This document shows positions 956 through 45,365 of a DNA stretch of 64,000 nucleotides, piece by piece. The stretch is from Escherichia coli. Its GTDB lineage: Bacteria; Pseudomonadota; Gammaproteobacteria; Enterobacterales; Enterobacteriaceae. Position 1 is the first letter of the stretch. Each line of letters starts with the position of its first letter. The position numbers and the translations under genes were made by a program. Below the pieces are notes generated by a model. The model did not search any database and was not told the DNA's origin. It saw only the letters and a list, made by a program, of their open reading frames with translations. The stretch lies in NCBI RefSeq assembly GCF_036507355.1, contig NZ_AP027877.1; one strand, 5' to 3'.

Positions 956-1321
956 TCATTCGCCGCGATAGATACAACCAGCGGTGCAGGTTTCTTTTAC
1001 CATCACCGCACTTAACAGCGGCACAACGGGTTTAACCTGATCCCAAATCCATTTTGCTAAAACTTCGCTGGTCGGGTTTTCCAGGCCTGGAATATCATTG
1101 AGATAATGGTGATCGAGGCGCTCATAAGTTGGCTTAAACGCTGCTTTCAGTTCAGCGAAATCGATAATCCAGCCCGTATGCGGATCGACTTCCCCGGTAA
1201 TTTCCAGTCGCACCATAAAGGAATGCCCGTGCAGGCGACCACATTTATGCCCTTCCGGGACGTGTGGTAAGCGGTGAGCGGCTTCGAAGGTGAAATCTTT
1301 AAATAACGTGGTGGACATCAT
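956..1321 (-). CDS. queD: 6-carboxy-5,6,7,8-tetrahydropterin synthase (queuosine biosynthesis)
   Basis: ORF 956..1405 contains [35 protein letters not shown]; start placed at the internal MM (121 aa); Cx5HGH zinc motif. Confidence 0.9.
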
Positions 1322-1405
1322 AATTTCTCTACAGGACGATAAAACCGCCGTAGAGTACCGGAAAGGCTGTTTTTTCGCATTATCTAAAACGACTTTGTTG
1401 CGCAA

Positions 1406-1636
1406 AATCGCTGATTTATCTTAATGATTGGCTAAATTCATTTGTTTTTCATTAGGTTGGTTAATCTATTTTGTTGTTAAAGACTATTGCTAAAACAGGT
1501 TAGTCGATTTGGTTATTAGTTATCGCTATCCCGTCTTTAATCCACACCGTTCACCCCGTTAACCTTACCTTCTCTTCTGTTTTATGGGCGCTGACAGGGC
1601 GCAGAAACAGCTTTGCTTACTGGAACATAACGACGC
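1406..1636 (+). promoter_or_regulatory. AT-rich cysJIH upstream region (expected CysB-activated promoter)
   Basis: 230-bp AT-rich non-coding stretch directly upstream of cysJ; exact binding sites not resolved by eye. Confidence 0.4.
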
Positions 1637-3436
1637 ATGACGACACAGGTCCCACCTTCCGCGTTGCTTCCGTTGAACCCGGAGCAACTGGCACGCCTTC
1701 AGGCGGCCACGACCGATTTAACTCCCACCCAGCTTGCCTGGGTTTCTGGCTATTTCTGGGGCGTGCTCAATCAGCAGCCTGCTGCGCTTGCAGCGACGCC
1801 AGCGCCAGCCGCAGAAATGCCGGGTATAACTATTATCTCTGCTTCGCAAACCGGCAATGCGCGCCGGGTTGCTGAAGCATTACGCGATGATTTATTGACG
1901 GCAAAACTGAACGTTAAGCTGGTGAACGCGGGCGACTATAAATTCAAACAAATCGCCAGCGAAAAACTGCTTATCGTGGTGACGTCAACGCAAGGAGAAG
2001 GGGAACCGCCGGAAGAAGCCGTCGCGCTGCATAAGTTCCTGTTCTCCAAAAAAGCGCCGAAGCTGGAAAACACCGCGTTTGCCGTGTTTAGCCTCGGCGA
2101 TAGTTCTTATGAATTTTTCTGCCAGTCCGGGAAAGATTTTGACAGCAAGCTGGCGGAACTGGGCGGTGAACGCCTGCTCGACCGTGTCGATGCCGACGTT
2201 GAATACCAGACCGCTGCCAGCGAGTGGCGCGCCCGCGTGGTTGATGCGCTTAAATCGCGTGCGCCTGTCGCGGCACCTTCGCAATCCGTCGCTACTGGCG
2301 CGGTAAATGAAATCCACACCAGCCCGTACAGCAAAGACGCGCCGCTGGTGGCTAGCCTCTCTGTTAACCAGAAAATTACCGGGCGTAACTCTGAAAAAGA
2401 CGTTCGCCATATCGAAATTGACTTAGGTGACTCTGGCCTGCGCTATCTGCCGGGCGACGCGCTGGGCGTGTGGTATCAGAACGATCCGGCACTGGTGAAA
2501 GAACTTGTCGAACTGCTGTGGCTGAAAGGTGATGAAACTGTCACCGTTGACGGCAAAACGCTGACCCTGAGCGAAGCGCTACAGTGGCACTTCGAACTGA
2601 CGGTTAACACCACCAATATTGTTGAGAACTATGCCACGCTTACCCGCAGTGAAACGCTGCTGCCGCTGGTGGGCGATAAAGCGAAGTTGCAGCATTACGC
2701 CGCGACCACGCCGATTGTCGATATGGTGCGTTTCTCTCCGGCACAGCTTGATGCTGACGCGCTGATTAACCTGCTGCGCCCGCTGACGCCGCGCCTCTAT
2801 TCCATCGCCTCATCGCAGGCTGAAGTGGAAAGTGAAGTGCACGTCACCGTTGGTGTCGTTCGTTATGACATTGAAGGCCGCGCCCGTGCGGGTGGTGCCT
2901 CCAGCTTCCTCGCGGACCGCGTGGAAGAAGAGGGTGAAGTCCGCGTCTTTATCGAACATAACGACAACTTCCGCCTGCCCGCTAACCCGGAAACCCCGGT
3001 GATTATGATTGGCCCAGGCACCGGCATCGCGCCGTTCCGCGCCTTTATGCAGCAACGCGCCGCCGACGAAGCGCCGGGCAAAAACTGGCTGTTCTTTGGC
3101 AACCCGCACTTTACGGAAGATTTCCTCTACCAGGTGGAATGGCAGCGTTACGTCAAAGAGGGCGTGCTGACACGTATCGATCTCGCCTGGTCGCGCGATC
3201 AAAAAGAAAAAGTTTACGTACAAGACAAACTGCGCGAACAGGGCGCGGAGCTGTGGCGCTGGATCAATGACGGTGCCCACATTTATGTCTGCGGCGACGC
3301 TAATCGCATGGCGAAAGACGTTGAGCAGGCACTTCTGGAAGTGATTGCCGAATTTGGTGGCATGGACACCGAAGCGGCGGATGAATTTTTAAGTGAGCTG
3401 CGCGTAGAGCGCCGTTATCAGCGAGATGTCTACTAA
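1637..3436 (+). CDS. cysJ: sulfite reductase (NADPH) flavoprotein alpha subunit
   Basis: 599-aa ORF with flavodoxin-like and FAD/NADPH reductase regions; stop overlaps cysI start (TAATGA). Confidence 0.95.
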
Positions 3437-6012: not shown

Positions 6013-6128
6013 GCGAGCAGCATTCCTGATTTTAAACGTGAACGCCGCTGGAAGAATTATCAGGTATAGAATGGCGTCGGGTGCTTGAGGCTGTCTGGCG
6101 TTAAGCATTCGCGAGGTTCCAGATGGAC

Positions 6129-6181
6129 AAAAGCCCCAGGCGATATTTCTATCAACCTGAGGCTCGCGTTCGAACGTAGCA
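6129..6181 (-). ncRNA. candidate Sok-like antisense RNA of the hok locus
   Basis: Minus strand: -35 TTGCCT (6216..6211), 17-bp spacer, -10 TAACAT (6193..6188), then about 55 nt ending in an 8-bp hairpin (gcctcagg/cctggggc) plus UUUU; antisense to the hok leader. Confidence 0.4.
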
Positions 6182-6219
6182 ATTCGGATGTTAGTCTCTT
6201 CTTTGCAGGGAGGCAAGAC

Positions 6220-6372
6220 ATGCTAACAAAATATGCCCTTGTGGCAATCATAGTACTGTGTTGTACAGTACTGGGATTCACGCTCATGGTAGGCGACTCG
6301 TTATGTGAGTTGAATATCAGAGAGCGTGGTATGGAGTTTAAGGCAGTTCTCGCTTACGAATCGAAGAAGTAG
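6220..6372 (+). CDS. Hok/Gef-family type I toxin (small membrane peptide)
   Basis: 50-aa product [50 protein letters not shown], closely resembling chromosomal Hok peptides (HokE-like as I recall it); SD gcagggagg upstream; leader begins with the hok-type motif ggtgcttgaggctgtctggc. Confidence 0.8.
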
Positions 6373-6737
6373 CCACCACGTGGGGGTAAAACCCCGCGTA
6401 TTGAATTGTGATGGTTTGGTCTCCTGCACCCTTTTTTAAATTTATATTTTTTATGTGAATATATTGTCTCTATTTATTATTATGAATTTCAAATGAAAAT
6501 CATAAATTTATTCACAATATAAATGTTTTATTGGCTGATATATATCACAGATAATTTTTAAAATATGCGTAAATATCCTTTAAGTTTACTGAAGGATAAA
6601 AATATTGTGACTTTCTTTGATTTCTGGGGAAAAACCCGACGCGACGAGAAAGAAGGGGGTGACGACTATCACCTTCTTTGCTGGCATTCGCTGGATGTGG
6701 CCGCGATGGGCTATTTAATGGTTAAAAGAAATTGCTT

Positions 6738-6746
6738 CGGGCTGGC
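6738..6746. repeat. IS1 target-site duplication, left copy (CGGGCTGGC)
   Basis: Identical 9-mer immediately flanks both IS1 ends. Confidence 0.85.
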
Positions 6747-6761
6747 GGTAATGACTCCAAC

Positions 6762-7265
6762 TTATTGATAGTGTTTTATGTTCAGATAATGCCCGATGAC
6801 TTTGTCATGCAGCTCCACCGATTTTGAGAACGACAGCGACTTCCGTCCCAGCCGTGCCAGGTGCTGCCTCAGATTCAGGTTATGCCGCTCAATTCGCTGC
6901 GTATATCGCTTGCTGATTACGTGCAGCTTTCCCTTCAGGCGGGATTCATACAGCGGCCAGCCATCCGTCATCCATATCACCACGTCAAAGGGTGACAGCA
7001 GGCTCATAAGACGCCCCAGCGTCGCCATCGTGCGTTCACCGAATACGTGCGCAACAACCGTCTTCCGGAGCCTGTCATACGCGTAAAACAGCCAGCGCTG
7101 GCGCGATTTAGCCCCGACATAGCCCCACTGTTCGTCCATTTCCGCGCAGACGATGACGTCACTGCCCGGCTGTATGCGCGAGGTTACCGACTGCGGCCTG
7201 AGTTTTTTAAGTGACGTAAAATCGTGTTGAGGCCAACGCCCATAATGCGGGCTGTTGCCCGGCAT
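6762..7265 (-). CDS. insB: IS1 transposase InsB (InsAB' C-terminal part)
   Basis: 167-aa [30 protein letters not shown] ... NIKHYQ. Confidence 0.9.
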
Positions 7266-7459
7266 CCAACGCCATTCATGGCCATATCAATGATTTTCTG
7301 GTGCGTACCGGGTTGAGAAGCGGTGTAAGTGAACTGCAGTTGCCATGTTTTACGGCAGTGAGAGCAGAGATAGCGCTGATGTCCGGCGGTGCTTTTGCCG
7401 TTACGCACCACCCCGTCAGTAGCTGAACAGGAGGGACAGCTGATAGAAACAGAAGCCAC
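7184..7459 (-). CDS. insA: IS1 InsA (transposition repressor / InsAB' N-terminal part)
   Basis: 91-aa [43 protein letters not shown]. Confidence 0.9.
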
Positions 7460-7514
7460 TGGAGCACCTCAAAAACACCATCATACACTAAATCAGTAAG
7501 TTGGCAGCATCACC

Positions 7515-7523
7515 CGGGCTGGC
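7515..7523. repeat. IS1 target-site duplication, right copy (CGGGCTGGC)
   Basis: Identical to 6738..6746. Confidence 0.85.
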
Positions 7524-9451
7524 TGATTATTTTCGTCAATTAGGGATTTCTGACAAGGAACAGGCGGCTCAATTTTTCGCCTGGTTGTTGTGCTGGCACG
7601 ATATTGGAAAATTTGCCCGCTCATTTCAGCAACTTTACCTGCACCCACAACTCAAGGTTCCGGAAGGCGCAAGAAAGAATTACGAAAAGATCTCTCATTC
7701 AACGCTGGGCTACTGGTTGTGGCATCATTATTTAAGTGAATGCGAAGAATTGCTTCCTGCCTCTTCACTCTCTACTCGCAAACTTAAACGTGTAATAGCG
7801 ATGTGGATGCCCATGACTACCGGGCATCATGGTCGGCCCCCTGACCGTATTGATGAACTGGATAATTTTCTGCCTGAAGACAAAGTTGCCGCGCGAGATT
7901 TTCTCCTTGAAATCAAGGCACTGTGTCCGCTCATAGAGATTCCCACATTCTGGGATAATGACGAGGGAGTTGAACTTTTAAAACAACTTTCCTGGTATAT
8001 CTCTGCAACAGTCGTACTTGCAGACTGGACGGGTTCGTCAACGCGATTTTTTCCACGCGTCGCACACCCAATGGATATTAAAGATTACTGGCAGAAAACT
8101 TTAGTTCAGGCTCAAAACGCCTTAACCGTCTTTCCTCCAAAAGCAGAAACCGCACCTTTCACCGGAATTAATACGCTGTTTCCTTTTATTGAGCACCCGA
8201 CACCATTACAGCAAAAGGTGCTGGATCTGGATATCAGCCAGCCAGGGCCACAGTTATTTATTCTGGAAGACGTGACTGGCGCAGGTAAAACAGAAGCGGC
8301 GCTTATCCTGGCGCACAGGTTGATGGCTGCGAGGAAAGCACAGGGTTTGTTTTTTGGCCTGCCAACAATGGCAACGGCCAATGCCATGTACGATCGGCTG
8401 GTCAAAACCTGGCTTGCTTTCTATTCGCCAGAGTCCCGCCCCAGCCTGGTGCTGGCACACAGTGCCCGCACATTAATGGACCGCTTTAATGAATCACTCT
8501 GGTCCGGTGATTTAGTCGGGTCAGAAGAACCGGATGAACAAGCGTTCAGTCAAGGATGTGCAGCCTGGTTTGCCGACAGTAACAAGAAGGCTTTACTGGC
8601 TGAAATTGGCGTCGGCACGCTGGATCAGGCGATGATGGCGGTGATGCCGTTCAAACATAATAATCTGCGGCTTCTGGGGCTGAGTAACAAAATCCTGCTG
8701 GCTGATGAGATCCACGCCTGTGACGCTTACATGTCATGCATTCTTGAAGGGCTGATCGAGCGGCAGGCGCGTGGTGGAAACAGCGTCATTTTGCTTTCTG
8801 CTACGTTATCCCAACAGCAGCGCGACAAACTCGTCGCCGCCTTTGCGCGTGGCACAGAGGGCCAGCAAGAAGCTCCGTTCCTTGAAAAGGATGATTACCC
8901 CTGGCTGACGCATGTCACGAAATCCGATGTGAACTCACACCGGGTAGCGACGCGCAAAGACGTTGAGCGTAGCGTCAGCGTGGGTTGGCTTCATAGTGAA
9001 CAAGAGAGTATTGCGCGTATCGAATCGGCGGTAAGTCAGGGAAAATGCATCGCCTGGATCCGCAATTCTGTCGATGACGCTATTAAGGTTCATCGTCAGC
9101 TGCTTGCCCGCGGCGTCATTCCCGCTTCCAGCCTTTCACTCTTTCATAGCCGCTTTGCTTTTAGCGATCGCCAGCGAATCGAAACGGAAACGCTGGCACG
9201 CTTTGGTAAAAATTGTAATTTAAAAAGATCATCGCAAGTCATTGTTTGTACACAAGTAATTGAGCAAAGTGTGGATATTGACCTGGACGAAATGATCTCC
9301 GACCTTGCCCCCATTGATTTGCTGATCCAGCGAGCGGGGCGATTACAGCGACATATCCGCGATATTAATGGTCAGTTAAAGCGTGACGGAAAAGACGAGC
9401 GTTCCCCTCCTGAATTGCTGATTCTGGCCCCCGTCTGGGACGACGCTCCTG

Positions 9452-9781
9452 GTGACGAATGGTTCGGCAGTGCCATGCGTACGCGCCTTTACAGAGGCCG
9501 CGCTTAAAGTCTCACCAACCGGAAAACAAAACAGCTTTGCCAGCCGTGCCTACGCCTCCTGGGCGCTGGCGGAAAAAGGCACTGTTCAACCGCGTTCTCT
9601 GGCGGCGGCTTTCTATGAACCCATTAATGGTACCCGTCAGTTAGATGTGGCGGTGCAGCGTATTACAACGCTTCGCGAAAACATGAATACGGTCTACGAA
9701 CAGAAGACTGAATGCGCAAGTTTTGACGTGATGAACAAACAGGGAAGCATGAAGGACGTACTGGACTTTATCTGCGCGTAA
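9452..9781 (+). other. cas gene remnant: either the 3' end of a Cascade gene (likely cas7e/casC) or a frameshifted Cas3 C-terminal segment
   Basis: 109-codon ORF in the +1 frame relative to cas3, overlapping its end by 55 nt; its stop lies 10 nt before the casD-like start with an intervening SD (aagggg), an operon-internal spacing. Confidence 0.35.
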
Positions 9782-9791
9782 GGGGCGGCTT

Positions 9792-9870
9792 ATGAGCCAA
9801 TATCTGATTTTTCAGCTTCATGGGCCAATGGCATCCTGGGGCGTCGATGCCCCCGGCGAAGTGCGTCATA
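9792..9870 (+). pseudogene. casD: casD (cas5e) 5' remnant, about 25 codons, fused out of frame to cas1
   Basis: N-terminus MSQYLIFQLHGPMASWG matches the Cas5e N-terminus as I remember it from E. coli (MRSYLILRLAGPMQAWG); similarity is lost where the Cas1 frame begins. Confidence 0.6.
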
Positions 9871-10973
<1,103 letters not shown>

Positions 10974-11069
10974 GTTATGTGTTCTTTAAAAATAAGGAAA
11001 TGTTTGAATTTAGTTGGTAGATTGTTGATGTGGAATAAATTTGTTTAAAAACAGATATGTATGCTTAGT
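10974..11069 (+). promoter_or_regulatory. CRISPR leader (AT-rich)
   Basis: About 95 bp of AT-rich sequence between the cas2 stop and the first repeat. Confidence 0.7.
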
Positions 11070-11281
11070 GTGTTCCCGGCGCCAGCGGGGATAAACCGAC
11101 GAGGGGCTCGTTATTCGGGAAATTACAAAAGTGTTCCCCGCGCCAGCGGGGATAAACCGGCCCAGGGATTTGTTCAATCCAGCGTGCCGCTGTGTTCCCC
11201 GCATCAGCGGGGATAAACCGGGCGCACTGGATGCGATGATGGATATCACTTAGAATTCCCCGCCCCTGCGGTAGAACTCCC
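11070..11281 (+). CRISPR. type I-E CRISPR array: 3 spacers of 32 nt, three 29-bp repeats and a degenerate terminal repeat
   Basis: Repeats GTGTTCCCGGCGCCAGCGGGGATAAACCG (11070..11098), GTGTTCCCCGCGCCAGCGGGGATAAACCG (11131..11159), GTGTTCCCCGCATCAGCGGGGATAAACCG (11192..11220), degenerate gaattccccgcccctgcggtagaactccc (11253..11281); spacers at 11099..11130, 11160..11191, 11221..11252. Confidence 0.9.
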
Positions 11282-22377: not shown

Positions 22378-22414
22378 AAGGCCAGTCTCAAGCGAGGCTG
22401 GCCTTTTTCTTTTG
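22378..22414 (+). terminator. rho-independent terminator of rpoS
   Basis: Hairpin ggccagtctcaagcgaggctggcc followed by tttttctttt. Confidence 0.8.
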
Positions 22415-22480
22415 TTTGGGAAGCTTGTGTTTTTGTCGCCTGGATAAGACACGTCAGCGTCCTACCCGGCAATTTGCATC

Positions 22481-22888
22481 CTATGTGTTCATCATCTTGC
22501 GCACCAGCTGCACAAACAGCTCCTGCTCTTCTGCACTCAAACGCCCCAAAAATTCCTCATCCACGCTGTCACCAATCGGTATCGCCGCAGCAAGTATCTT
22601 TTCTCCTTCGGCAGTCAGCCAGACAAAGCGACGCCGCTTGTCAGCGGCATCATGTTCACGTCTGACTAAGCCACGATTCTCCATTCTTGCCAACATTTCT
22701 GCCAACGTTGCTTTGGTGCTGACTGCTGCTTCTATCAGTGCCACCTGTTCGATACCAGGCTTATCAGCAATGGCGCGCATCACCGCATACTGTGGTTTGG
22801 TCAGGTCAGGTAACTCGTGCTGCCAGCGAGCCGTGTGCTGCTGAAAAAGCTGTCGTAACTGATGGAACGCTTTATTTCGTAACGCCAT
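22481..22888 (-). CDS. hosA: MarR/SlyA-family transcriptional regulator (HosA-like)
   Basis: 135-aa ORF with winged-helix region; divergent from the adjacent decarboxylase genes. Confidence 0.75.
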   Translation of the reverse strand: MALRNKAFHQLRQLFQQHTARWQHELPDLTKPQYAVMRAIADKPGIEQVALIEAAVSTKATLAEMLARMENRGLVRREHDAADKRRRFVWLTAEGEKILAAAIPIGDSVDEEFLGRLSAEEQELFVQLVRKMMNT

Positions 22889-23034
22889 GTAAACTCCGGG
22901 CTAATTCTCTGTCGCTATCATAGCGGTTTTTTAGTGACGAAGAAGATGTTGTTACTTTTCAATCCTTGCCGCTGTGGAAATGAAGGAGTATGTTAATAAT
23001 AACGTTCGTATACGAACAATTAAGAGAATAAGCA

Positions 23035-23628
23035 ATGAAACTGATCGTCGGGATGACAGGGGCTACCGGTGCGCCTCTTGGTGTGGCATTACTGCAAGCG
23101 CTGCGGGAGATGCCGAATGTCGAGACTCATCTGGTGATGTCGAAGTGGGCGAAAACCACCATTGAACTGGAAACGCCTTACAGCGCCCGCGATGTTGCTG
23201 CCCTCGCTGACTTCAGCCATAACCCGGCGGATCAGGCGGCGACCATCTCCTCAGGTTCCTTTCGTACCGACGGCATGATCGTTATTCCGTGCAGTATGAA
23301 AACGCTCGCCGGTATCCGCGCTGGTTACGCCGATGGCCTGGTAGGGCGCGCGGCGGACGTCGTGCTCAAAGAAGGCCGCAAACTGGTGCTGGTGCCGCGT
23401 GAAATGCCGCTTAGCACCATCCATCTCGAAAATATGCTCGCACTTTCACGCATGGGCGTGGCGATGGTGCCGCCGATGCCTGCCTTTTATAACCATCCCG
23501 AAACGGTAGATGACATTGTCCACCATGTAGTAGCCCGCGTGCTGGATCAATTTGGCCTCGAACATCCCCACGCCAGGCGCTGGCAAGGATTGCCGCAGGC
23601 CCGGAATTTTTCTCAGGAGAATGAATAA
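23035..23628 (+). CDS. ecdB: UbiX/Pad1-family flavin prenyltransferase (decarboxylase accessory subunit B)
   Basis: 197-aa ORF MKLIVGMTGATGAPLGVALLQALREMPNVETHLVMSKWA, typical UbiX N-terminus. Confidence 0.8.
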   Translation: MKLIVGMTGATGAPLGVALLQALREMPNVETHLVMSKWAKTTIELETPYSARDVAALADFSHNPADQAATISSGSFRTDGMIVIPCSMKTLAGIRAGYADGLVGRAADVVLKEGRKLVLVPREMPLSTIHLENMLALSRMGVAMVPPMPAFYNHPETVDDIVHHVVARVLDQFGLEHPHARRWQGLPQARNFSQENE

Positions 23629-25055
23629 TGGCATTTGATGATTTACGCAGCTTTTTACAGGCGCTTGATGACCACGGCCAGTTACTGAAAATCAGCGAAG
23701 AGGTGAACGCGGAACCGGATCTGGCAGCAGCAGCTAACGCCACCGGGCGTATCGGTGACGGCGCGCCCGCGCTGTGGTTTGATAATATTCGCGGCTTTAC
23801 CGATGCCCGCGTGGCAATGAACACCATCGGTTCCTGGCAGAACCACGCGATTTCCCTCGGCCTGTCGCCAAACACCCCGGTCAAAAAGCAGATTGATGAG
23901 TTTATCCGCCGCTGGGATAACTTCCCGATTGCCCCGGAGCGCCGCGCCAATCCAGCCTGGGCGCAGAACACCGTCGATGGCGACGAGATCAACCTGTTCG
24001 ATATCCTGCCGCTGTTTCGTTTAAACGATGGCGATGGCGGTTTCTATCTCGACAAAGCGTGCGTGGTTTCCCGCGATCCGCTCGACCCGGATAACTTCGG
24101 CAAGCAGAACGTCGGCATCTACCGCATGGAAGTGAAGGGCAAGCGTAAGCTCGGCCTGCAACCGGTGCCGATGCACGATATCGCCCTGCATCTGCATAAA
24201 GCGGAAGAGCGCGGTGAAGATCTGCCGATTGCGATCACGCTCGGTAACGATCCGATCATCACGCTGATGGGGGCCACGCCGCTGAAATACGAACAGTCTG
24301 AGTATGAAATGGCAGGTGCGCTGCGTGAAAGCCCGTACCCGATCGCCACCGCCCCGCTGACCGGTTTTGATGTGCCGTGGGGTTCAGAAGTGATCCTCGA
24401 AGGGGTCATCGAAAGCCGTAAACGCGAAATCGAAGGGCCGTTCGGTGAGTTTACCGGACACTACTCCGGCGGGCGTAACATGACCGTGGTGCGCATCGAT
24501 AAAGTCTCTTACCGCACCAGGCCGATTTTCGAATCGCTGTACCTCGGCATGCCGTGGACCGAAATCGACTACCTGATGGGGCCAGCCACCTGTGTGCCGC
24601 TGTATCAGCAACTTAAAGCCGAGTTCCCGGAAGTACAGGCGGTGAACGCCATGTACAACCACGGCCTGCTGGCGATTATCTCCACCAAAAAACGCTACGG
24701 CGGCTTTGCCCGCGCGGTGGGCCTGCGTGCGATGACCACGCCGCACGGTCTGGGCTACGTAAAGATGGTGATTATGGTCGATGAAGACGTTGACCCGTTC
24801 AACCTGCCGCAGGTGATGTGGGCGCTCTCCTCGAAAGTAAATCCGGCAGGGGATTTGGTGCAGTTGCCGAATATGTCCGTGCTGGAACTCGACCCTGGCT
24901 CAAGCCCGGCGGGGATCACCGACAAGCTGATTATCGACGCCACCACGCCTGTCGCCCCGGACAACCGTGGTCACTACAGCCAGCCGGTGGTGGATTTGCC
25001 GGAAACCAAAGCCTGGGCTGAAAAACTGACCGCTATGCTGGCCGCACGTAAATAA
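23628..25055 (+). CDS. ecdC: UbiD-family non-oxidative aromatic acid decarboxylase (subunit C)
   Basis: 475-aa ORF overlapping ecdB stop; UbiD-like N-terminus MAFDDLRSFLQALDDHGQLLKISEEV. Confidence 0.8.
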   Translation: MAFDDLRSFLQALDDHGQLLKISEEVNAEPDLAAAANATGRIGDGAPALWFDNIRGFTDARVAMNTIGSWQNHAISLGLSPNTPVKKQIDEFIRRWDNFPIAPERRANPAWAQNTVDGDEINLFDILPLFRLNDGDGGFYLDKACVVSRDPLDPDNFGKQNVGIYRMEVKGKRKLGLQPVPMHDIALHLHKAEERGEDLPIAITLGNDPIITLMGATPLKYEQSEYEMAGALRESPYPIATAPLTGFDVPWGSEVILEGVIESRKREIEGPFGEFTGHYSGGRNMTVVRIDKVSYRTRPIFESLYLGMPWTEIDYLMGPATCVPLYQQLKAEFPEVQAVNAMYNHGLLAIISTKKRYGGFARAVGLRAMTTPHGLGYVKMVIMVDEDVDPFNLPQVMWALSSKVNPAGDLVQLPNMSVLELDPGSSPAGITDKLIIDATTPVAPDNRGHYSQPVVDLPETKAWAEKLTAMLAARK

Positions 25056-25065
25056 GGAGAACAAG

Positions 25066-25302
25066 ATGATTTGTCCACGTTGTGCCGATGAACAGATTGA
25101 AGTGATGGCGAAATCGCCGGTGAAAGATGTCTGGACGGTATATCAGTGCCAGCATTGCCTTTATACCTGGCGCGATACCGAACCGCTACGTCGCATCAGC
25201 CGCGAACATTATCCCGAAGCGTTCCGCATGACGCAGAAAGATATTGATGACGCGCCAATGGTGCCGAGCATTCCGCCGCTGCTGGCGGCAGATAAGCGCT
25301 AA
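25066..25302 (+). CDS. ecdD: small decarboxylase subunit D (zinc-ribbon-like, CxxC ... CxxC)
   Basis: 78-aa ORF MICPRCADEQIEVMAKSPVKDVWTVYQCQHCLYTWRD. Confidence 0.7.
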   Translation: MICPRCADEQIEVMAKSPVKDVWTVYQCQHCLYTWRDTEPLRRISREHYPEAFRMTQKDIDDAPMVPSIPPLLAADKR

Positions 25303-43652: not shown

Positions 43653-43676
43653 TTCTTCATCAGGGAATTCAGGGAA

Positions 43677-44450
43677 TTGAACATCAGAACAGGGATGTGC
43701 GCTTTTTTATTGAGCTTAGTGCAGTCTGCACAGGCCACCAGCTTTACCGAATATCTGCCAATGAGTGGCAGCGAATATGCGCAAAAGCGGGCGCTGAAAC
43801 CTCTCCTGACCATGCCTTATTATACCGAGCAAACTTGGCATTTTAGAAAAATCGGCGTTGCTGGCGTGACGCTTGAGAAGATGCCAAATGAAGAGGATTA
43901 CTGGCAATTAACCGCTAAAGACCGCGCGGGTAAATCCTGGACGGTGCCAGTGGGGTTGCTGGCAAATATGGCGGGCAAAGGGCAGCTCTATCGCGCCGAT
44001 CTGGATCGTAACGGCATTCAGGATCTGGTTATCTGGTTGCCAAGTGCCGGTAATGGTCTGGCGCCCTATGCACATTTAATCCTCATGACGTTCACGCACG
44101 AAGGCCGTCCCTGTGTCTTTGAACCCTGGGGATTCTACACTGCAAGCAAAACTGGCGTAGATGATTTGCTGGATTTACAAGGCAATGGTCACACGCAATT
44201 GCTGGATATGCAGTTTAATTCTGGTTACTGGATAACCAGTCTGTATCAGGTAAAAGACGCCAAATGGCAGCGTGTTCACGGCTGGTTTGGCAAGTTAAGC
44301 TATCCCGCGCTCACGCGTTTTACTTATACCCCCAACCGTAAACTCGTCCTCAAACCCATCGCCGGGCGCGACACACAAACGGAAGATCTGTCGCTGACGC
44401 AGCGTTGCTTGATAAAGGGGGATATGCTTGATGGGGTGAATCAGAACTGA
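43677..44450 (+). CDS. secreted protein of unknown function with two FG-GAP-like D-x-D-x-N-G-x-x-D loops
   Basis: 257-aa ORF starting 24 nt after the hycI stop; N-terminal signal peptide (CAFLLSLVQSAQA|TS); motifs ADLDRNGIQDLVIW and DLLDLQGNGHTQLLD. Confidence 0.6.
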   Translation: MNIRTGMCAFLLSLVQSAQATSFTEYLPMSGSEYAQKRALKPLLTMPYYTEQTWHFRKIGVAGVTLEKMPNEEDYWQLTAKDRAGKSWTVPVGLLANMAGKGQLYRADLDRNGIQDLVIWLPSAGNGLAPYAHLILMTFTHEGRPCVFEPWGFYTASKTGVDDLLDLQGNGHTQLLDMQFNSGYWITSLYQVKDAKWQRVHGWFGKLSYPALTRFTYTPNRKLVLKPIAGRDTQTEDLSLTQRCLIKGDMLDGVNQN

Positions 44451-44611
44451 CTTTTTGCAGAGTGGTTATGAGGATTTTGGGGGTAATTATATCACGCGCA
44501 AGTGTTTACATATTGTGAACTTGGATTTGATGAGCTATAGTTTCCGAACACATGAGGATAGAACTCGCAGATGTGGCTGTTTACTTACTATAAGGAAGTT
44601 AAAACTTAAAA

Positions 44612-44923
44612 ATGCACATCATTTCTAAAGCGCCATTTGAAGAGTCTGCGCGTAAATATCCTAACGACGCTCTGGCTCTTCAGGCATTGTATCGGGTTAT
44701 TAAGGAAACGGATTTTTCTACGCCAGAAGAAATGCGAACGGCTTTTCCCAACCTCGACAATTTTAAATATCGCAACAAATGGTACGTTCTGGATGTCGGC
44801 GGGAACAATCTTAGGGTTATTGCCTACATAAACTTTGTTAATAAGCGGTTCTTTGTGAAGCACATAACGAATCACGCAGAGTATGACAAACTGACACGTT
44901 ACTACAGAGAGAACAAAGAATGA
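44612..44923 (+). CDS. HigB-like type II toxin (RelE/ParE superfamily)
   Basis: 103-aa ORF MHIISKAPFEESARKYPND ... FPNLDNFKYRNKWYVLDVGGNNLRVIAYINF, collinear with E. coli HigB as recalled; toxin gene precedes and overlaps the antitoxin gene (ATGA), the inverted order typical of higBA. Confidence 0.75.
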   Translation: MHIISKAPFEESARKYPNDALALQALYRVIKETDFSTPEEMRTAFPNLDNFKYRNKWYVLDVGGNNLRVIAYINFVNKRFFVKHITNHAEYDKLTRYYRENKE

Positions 44924-45339
44924 CTGCTAATGCTGCACGCGCTGTTAAAGCAACAAGAGAACTGGTCAATGCAGTCCCCTTTCTGGGAGGCAGTGACTCA
45001 GAAGATGATTATCGTGAAGCACTGGAACTGGTCGAATATTTGATTGAAGAAGATGACACCAATCCACTTATCGACTTTCTGGCGAGCCGCATTGCAGAGT
45101 ATGAAAACAACAACGAAAAGTTTGCAGAGTTCGACAAAGCCGTTGCGGCAATGCCGGTTGGCGTGGCGTTACTTCGCACGTTGATTGATCAACATAATCT
45201 GACCTATGCGGATTTGAAGAACGAAATCGGCTCTAAATCCCTGGTCAGTCAGATTTTGTCTGGACAACGATCCCTGACAATATCCCACATTAAGGCACTT
45301 TCAGCCCGATTTGGCGTTAAGCCGGAATGGTTTCTTTGA
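44920..45339 (+). CDS. HigA-like antitoxin (C-terminal XRE-type HTH)
   Basis: 139-aa ORF with C-terminal HTH region GSKSLVSQILSGQRSLTISHIKALSARFGV. Confidence 0.75.
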   Translation: MTANAARAVKATRELVNAVPFLGGSDSEDDYREALELVEYLIEEDDTNPLIDFLASRIAEYENNNEKFAEFDKAVAAMPVGVALLRTLIDQHNLTYADLKNEIGSKSLVSQILSGQRSLTISHIKALSARFGVKPEWFL

Positions 45340-45365
45340 TTTTGACTGATGCCAAACTCCAGATT

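Follow-up and report, generated by a model that had tools for sequence, protein, structure and literature searches.

The cas-E genes of Escherichia coli exist in two variants, E2 found in K-12 and the prevalent E1 found in O157:H7; hok/sok goes with strains not carrying E2, and insertion sequences and deletions have given rise to many minor cas-E arrangements (Almendros et al. 2014, mBio, PMC3903273). In K-12 derivatives with cas-E2, the cas genes are repressed by H-NS (PMC3903273, PMC10359306). Destruction by insertions and deletions was described for the cluster of E. coli B in the E. coli W genome paper (Archer et al. 2011, PMC3032704). Furthermore, natural IS insertions in cas genes have been catalogued, and IS1 and IS10 inactivate cas genes experimentally (Sheng et al. 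2023, Nat Commun, PMC10359306); the duplications made by IS1 in cas genes are predominantly 9 bp long (PMC10359306). Both the insertion of IS elements into cas genes and the decay of the cas locus in E. coli are already well documented; only the strain-specific site of the insertion described here is new.

This insertion was found in a 64,000-nucleotide stretch of E. coli DNA, which is referred to as the window. It has in common with the cases of Sheng et al. (PMC10359306) an IS1 in a type I-E cas gene, a 9-bp duplication and a reading frame that can be restored by removal of the element. In those cases the IS switches off an otherwise working system, whereas in the window 4.9 kb of cas DNA had already been lost, and IS1 is secondary and probably inconsequential. 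With the degenerate CRISPR-I loci of E. coli and Shigella (PMC3903273) and of E. coli B (PMC3032704) the window shares the arrangement cysH-hok/sok-cas-E1-CRISPR2.1-iap and the erosion by IS and deletion; a truncated cas3 and a short residual array are common to the window and these loci. The combination present in the window, two microhomology deletions away from any IS together with IS1 at cas3 nt 182, occurred in none of 5,426 complete E. coli genomes.

Results

A complete IS1 element splits cas3

The coordinates of all features are compiled in Table 1. The element in cas3 agreed with the IS1 family in its length, its ends, the insA/insB' arrangement with the A6C motif, the 9-bp duplication and its sequence identity. 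Its ends read GGTAATGACTCCAACTTATTGAT and, reverse-complemented, GGTGATGCTGCCAACTTACTGAT, with agreement as inverted repeats at 18 of 23 positions. The NCBIfam model NF033558 (transpos_IS1) matched insA at profile positions 1-81 and insB at 75-199, and the window IS1 was 100% identical over 768 bp to many annotated copies of the IS1A family in E. coli, both chromosomal and plasmid-borne. A sequence-only reading of this DNA had proposed a complete IS1 with both terminal repeats, insA and insB, and these results bear it out. The element is the single IS of the 64 kb, which probably speaks against a Shigella origin of the DNA; matches to IS1 were found at a median of 11 places per E. coli genome. 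As judged from its intact open reading frames and ends and from its recent insertion, it is presumably transposition-competent.

Table 1. Positions of the cas locus features and of IS1 in the window, and of IS1 copies in cas3 of other E. coli strains (the latter in the coordinates of the respective record).
Feature	Position	Strand or orientation	Remarks
hok/sok type I toxin-antitoxin	6079..6372	+	between cysH and cas3; sok RNA 6079..6235, hok ORF ~6220..6372
cas3 5' fragment, nt 1-182	6565..6746	+	carries HD motif I (HSLD)
Target-site duplication, left copy	6738..6746		CGGGCTGGC, 9 bp
Complete IS1, IS1A type	6747..7514	minus, antisense to cas3	768 bp; 100% identity to annotated IS1A-family copies
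IS1 terminal inverted repeats	6747..6769 and 7492..7514
insB	7265..6762	minus	167 aa, open
insA	7459..7184	minus	91 aa, open
A6C -1 frameshift motif AAAAAAC	7202..7208 (IS1 position 307)		within the insA/insB overlap
Target-site duplication, right copy	7515..7523		CGGGCTGGC, 9 bp
cas3 middle part, nt 183-2140	7524..9481	+	HD motif II onward, Walker A (GAGKT), DEIH, motif VI (QRAGRLQRH)
Deletion junction 1	9480..9482		3,523-bp deletion relative to the intact operon of L012; 2-bp microhomology (TA)
cas7e 3' remnant, last 300 bp	9482..9781	+	NCBIfam casC_Cse4 profile positions 248-325 of 325
cas5e 5' remnant, first 86 bp	9792..9877	+	ends at deletion junction 2
Deletion junction 2	9876..9877		1,405-bp deletion relative to L012; 2-bp microhomology (GA)
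cas1e without first 116 nt	9876..10683	+	NCBIfam cas1_ECOLI profile positions 36-268
cas2e	10680..10973	+	intact, 97 aa
AT-rich leader of CRISPR array	10974..11069
Residual CRISPR array	11070..11281	+	three 29-bp repeats, 61 bp spacing, and degenerate terminal repeat
IS1 in L009, E. coli VREC0864	1129..1896	opposite to window	cas3 nt 165; own duplication GTTAAAAGA
IS1 in L010, E. coli S171-1/EC20-72C-1	6139..6906		cas3 nt 170; adjacent deletion reaching cas2
IS1 in L001, E. coli NRZ99027-2			cas3 ~nt 597
IS1 in L011, E. coli ES4			cas3 nt 710

The perfect 9-bp duplication noted earlier was likewise found. Identity of two 9-mers at one fixed position pair has a chance of 4^-9 (~4e-6), and the 9-mer was single-copy at the homologous site in every relative examined. 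The element lies after nt 182 of cas3, that is codon 60 plus 2 nt, in accordance with the proposed position after codon 60, and thereby parts HD motif I (HSLD), which precedes it, from motif II (the HD in WHDIGK), which follows. Removal of IS1 and one 9-mer yielded an open frame of 2166 nt coding for 721 aa, with the Cas3 HD domain at residues 38-233 and the Cas3 helicase core at residues 306-676 as located by NCBIfam profile search. All 2166 nt of this frame agreed with the uninterrupted open reading frame of a near-clonal relative (L003). The anticipated continuous cas3 frame with HD and helicase parts does exist; the frame is open, but what it restores is not a complete gene, as intact Cas3 of the cas-E1 variant has 899 aa and only residues 1-717 of the restored product match this reference.

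In the window, the cas3 5' fragment runs on into IS1, forming a chimeric open reading frame of 67 aa that ends at 6768. On the other side, a TTG at 7501 inside the IS1 terminal repeat opens a frame of 668 aa (7501..9507), which is in frame with the downstream cas3 fragment. Expression of this fragment driven by IS1 via TTG 7501 was considered and found to be unsupported; the product would be devoid of HD motif I and of the C-terminal domain. Both the 67-aa and the 668-aa frames were looked up for other carriers of the insertion, and neither was on record.

The cas locus carries two deletions besides IS1

Upstream of cas3, sok was identified as Rfam RF01794 with 105 bits, which was the sole match above the Rfam gathering threshold in the 64-kb window. 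The Hok ORF comprises 50 aa and matches the NCBIfam Hok models; three other E. coli loci (L001, L002, L012) have an annotated Hok/Gef CDS in the corresponding position. A hok/sok between cysH and cas3 is a context typical of the cas-E1 arrangement. Furthermore, the cas fragments of the window are 93-98% identical to an operon type that 2,685 of 5,426 complete E. coli genomes carry. Since hok/sok is present together with this non-K-12 operon type, the locus can be classified, by the published description of the variants, as a degraded cas-E1.

Deletions were mapped and sized against E. coli D8 (L012), whose operon is complete. At the first deletion, cas3 nt 2140 is followed directly by the final 300 bp of cas7e; the 3' end of cas3, casA and casB in full, and 756 bp from the start of cas7e were lost. 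As a result cas3 ends at this junction, with its last 560 nt missing. The second deletion joined cas5e nt 86 to cas1e nt 117; it took the remainder of cas5e, the whole of cas6e and the initial 116 nt of cas1e. The remaining cas1e is read from an ATG at 9820, giving 19 foreign residues followed by Cas1 minus approximately its first 39 residues. An origin of these deletions as IS1-mediated adjacent deletions was rejected; the junctions at 9481 and 9877 do not abut IS1, and IS1-free relatives have both of them.

The HD domain and helicase core of Cas3 are present, in a gene that IS1 interrupts and that breaks off at codon 713 of 899. Alignment of the reference with the solved Cas3 structures 4q2c, 4qqw and 6c66 extends through approximately residue 763-787; the break at codon 713 thus falls just after helicase motif VI, and the C-terminal region is lost. 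Of the Cascade genes, casA, casB and cas6e are gone, and stretches of 300 bp (cas7e) and 86 bp (cas5e) are left. Among the adaptation genes cas2e is intact and cas1e lacks its first 116 nt. The array consists of 29-bp type-2 repeats and has retained its leader. Its leader-proximal (first) repeat shows a C-to-G change (GTGTTCCCGGCG...), and the third repeat shows a GC-to-AT change. Judging from the missing domains and partner genes, the locus must be regarded as non-functional already before IS1 arrived, with interference and crRNA processing lost; adaptation had probably been lost as well.

Near-clonal relatives carry the deletions without IS1

Near-clonal contigs in NCBI assemblies were found via the exact Iap protein adjoining the locus; the relatives comprise GCA_905398585.1, GCA_047852605.1, GCA_016660925.1 and SRR31122001. 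Two of them (L003, L004) are 99.95-99.99% identical to the window over ~21 kb and have an empty cas3 site; the site is also empty, with a single 9-mer, in the near-clonal L013, L014 and L015. In L002 and L012, in which cas3 is uninterrupted, the flanks likewise meet across a single 9-mer. The comparison of related genomes that had been suggested for the empty site therefore gave a uniform result, with IS1 missing from L002, L012, L003, L004, L013, L014 and L015. The exact uninterrupted 721-aa product was present on six contigs.

Both deletions were found without IS1 in the near-clones L003/L013, L004, L014 and L015, and L007 shows deletion 2. In the IS1-free relatives with both deletions, cas3 breaks off at codon 713 of 899 and continues into the cas7e fragment. 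As the IS1-free near-clones share both deletions, the deletions preceded IS1. The statement that cas3 was inactivated by IS1, put forward from the sequence alone, consequently had to be abandoned: relatives free of the element already carry the truncated cas3 and both deletions. Its assumption of a recent event held, with near-clonal relatives that differ by 1-4 SNPs per 5-21 kb having the empty site. Additionally, the window has a private derived T at position 6381, where ten other loci have the ancestral C, and this SNP places IS1 on the window's own branch. Insertion on that branch is supported by parsimony and by the private SNP; the relationship of window, L003 and L004 is star-like.

The IS1 junction was found in none of 5,426 complete E. 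coli genomes, and the exact 31-nt left junction was found neither in species-representative genomes nor in metagenome contigs. The double-deletion allele was likewise present in none of the 5,426 complete genomes. The closest complete RefSeq genome was 99.1% identical over 24 kb, and the window is collinear with E. coli. The insertion is thus genuine and recent and, as far as these comparisons reach, confined to the source strain.

Decay of the locus in other strains and further features of the window

Damaged cas-E1 operons were observed in most of the best-matching complete E. coli genomes (L001, L002, L009, L010, L011, L012). Among the lesions were fusions of casA with cas7e, a frameshift in cas2e of L012, an IS421 upstream of cas3, and an ISEcp1 within cas3 in hit H15. 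Decay of the cas-E1 locus is widespread in E. coli.

Comparison of 7515..11101 with L005 and L006 gave an identity of ~93% for the cas3 part and of 99.7% for cas1-cas2 and the leader; the Iap protein is identical in all three. This mosaic identity suggests recombination within the cas locus.

Two regions outside the cas locus were also recorded. At 43674..45345, between hycI and ascB, lies a 1.67-kb island coding for a HigB/HigA-like toxin-antitoxin pair and for a hypothetical protein of 257 aa; the island is missing from L012, the closest complete genome, and is present in full in 747 complete E. coli genomes. The rpoS-mutS intergenic region (22400..25100) resembles that of L012 in containing the hydroxyarylic acid decarboxylase BCD genes and a gene for a MarR-type regulator. 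The rpoS-mutS segment is polymorphic in E. coli.

IS1 has entered cas3 in other lineages

Independent IS1 insertions in cas3 of the cas-E1 type were found in four other complete E. coli lineages, all with additional cas lesions. Element and gene are the same as in the window and the sites differ (nt 165, 170, ~597 and 710 vs nt 182), two of the four (L009, L010) lying within 17 bp of the window site. No duplication was found in L010 and L011, because of adjacent deletion or rearrangement. Three of the five sites (nt 165, 170, 182) thus fall within 18 bp; P is ~0.013 under uniformity over the ~800 bp surveyed, a value to be read with the scope of the survey, which was limited by join distance and used one query centred on the window site, with at least 40 pieces in 380 IS1-rich records. 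The promoter region just upstream of cas3 nt 157-182 has a G+C content of 21-23%. The clustering is a weak hint at a local IS1 hotspot at the cas3 5' end; that nt 157-182 of cas-E1 cas3 (GTTAAAAGAAATTGCTTCGGGCTGGC; window 6721..6746) form a genuine regional hotspot appears rather unlikely at present.

Discussion

The window locus is, with high confidence, explained by a very recent transposition of a standard IS1 (IS1A type) into a type I-E (cas-E1) cas3 remnant that was already defunct, on a chromosome of the E. coli/Shigella group. Starting from an intact cysH-hok/sok-cas3-casABCDE-cas1-cas2-CRISPR-iap locus, two illegitimate deletions, each at a 2-bp microhomology, removed 4.9 kb and left a cas3 cut at codon 713 of 899, no Cse1, Cse2 or Cas6e, scraps of cas7e and cas5e, and a 5'-truncated cas1. 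The IS1 transposase InsAB' makes 9-bp staggered cuts in its target, and gap repair then gives the duplication. In one descendant of the deleted locus, InsAB', produced by -1 frameshifting at A6C, would later have cut CGGGCTGGC at cas3 nt 174-182 with a 9-bp stagger; the 768-bp element would have entered antisense to cas3, and gap repair would have produced the direct 9-bp duplication. This chemistry at the window site is deduced from established IS1 biology and from the anatomy of the element. IS1 presumably had no added effect on CRISPR immunity, and a phenotype would be absent: by then the locus had lost interference and crRNA processing, and probably adaptation too.

It could be argued that IS1 was the primary lesion of a working cas3 and that the deletions came later or are irrelevant. 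Cas3 is indeed interrupted at codon 61, the frame is restored on excision, and IS insertion is a documented route of CRISPR-Cas inactivation (PMC10359306). However, at least five near-identical assemblies or contigs have both deletions without IS1, so that this order of events needs a later precise loss of IS1 and one 9-mer in the ancestor of the relatives, an extra and rare event; it also conflicts with the private SNP at 6381, which puts IS1 on the window's own branch. We therefore consider it highly improbable. Still harder to credit is an assembly artefact, by which a copy of IS1 was misplaced into cas3. Repeats often cause misassembly, and IS1 is multicopy in most E. coli genomes, but the boundaries in the window coincide exactly with the canonical IS1 ends and are flanked by perfect 9-bp copies of a sequence occurring once at the empty site; a misjoin would create no target-site duplication.

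Accepting insertion into the defunct remnant, one may ask whether it was selected, namely if an orphan Cas3 remnant with HD and helicase parts and without the C-terminal domain was mildly harmful after the loss of Cascade. All four other complete E. coli lineages with IS1 in cas3 bear further cas lesions, and three of five independent insertions lie near the 5' end, at nt 165-182. Co-occurrence of lesions is, however, equally expected from neutral decay, and several IS1-free assemblies keep the same remnant, which argues that it is tolerated. Furthermore, expression of the cas genes is probably low, if the repression by H-NS known from K-12 derivatives with cas-E2 can serve as a guide; cas-E1 may differ in this respect. 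Selection for the insertion thus seems very unlikely, and we regard insertion of IS1 into the dead cas locus as an ordinary and inconsequential second event.

The type I-E locus of the window should be annotated as a remnant degraded several times, by two deletions and by IS1, and not as an IS-inactivated system that can be restored: excision of IS1 would not bring back immunity. The insertion itself provides a clean strain-private marker, which could serve the typing of the clone. If the 5' end of cas3 should prove to be a true hotspot, IS1 would be a repeated and preferred means by which cas3 is disabled, or its decay completed, in different E. coli lineages, and the cause could be a target preference of IS1 or selection against orphan Cas3 after the loss of Cascade. 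As it stands, the locus adds one more case to the documented erosion of cas-E in E. coli by insertion sequences and deletions.
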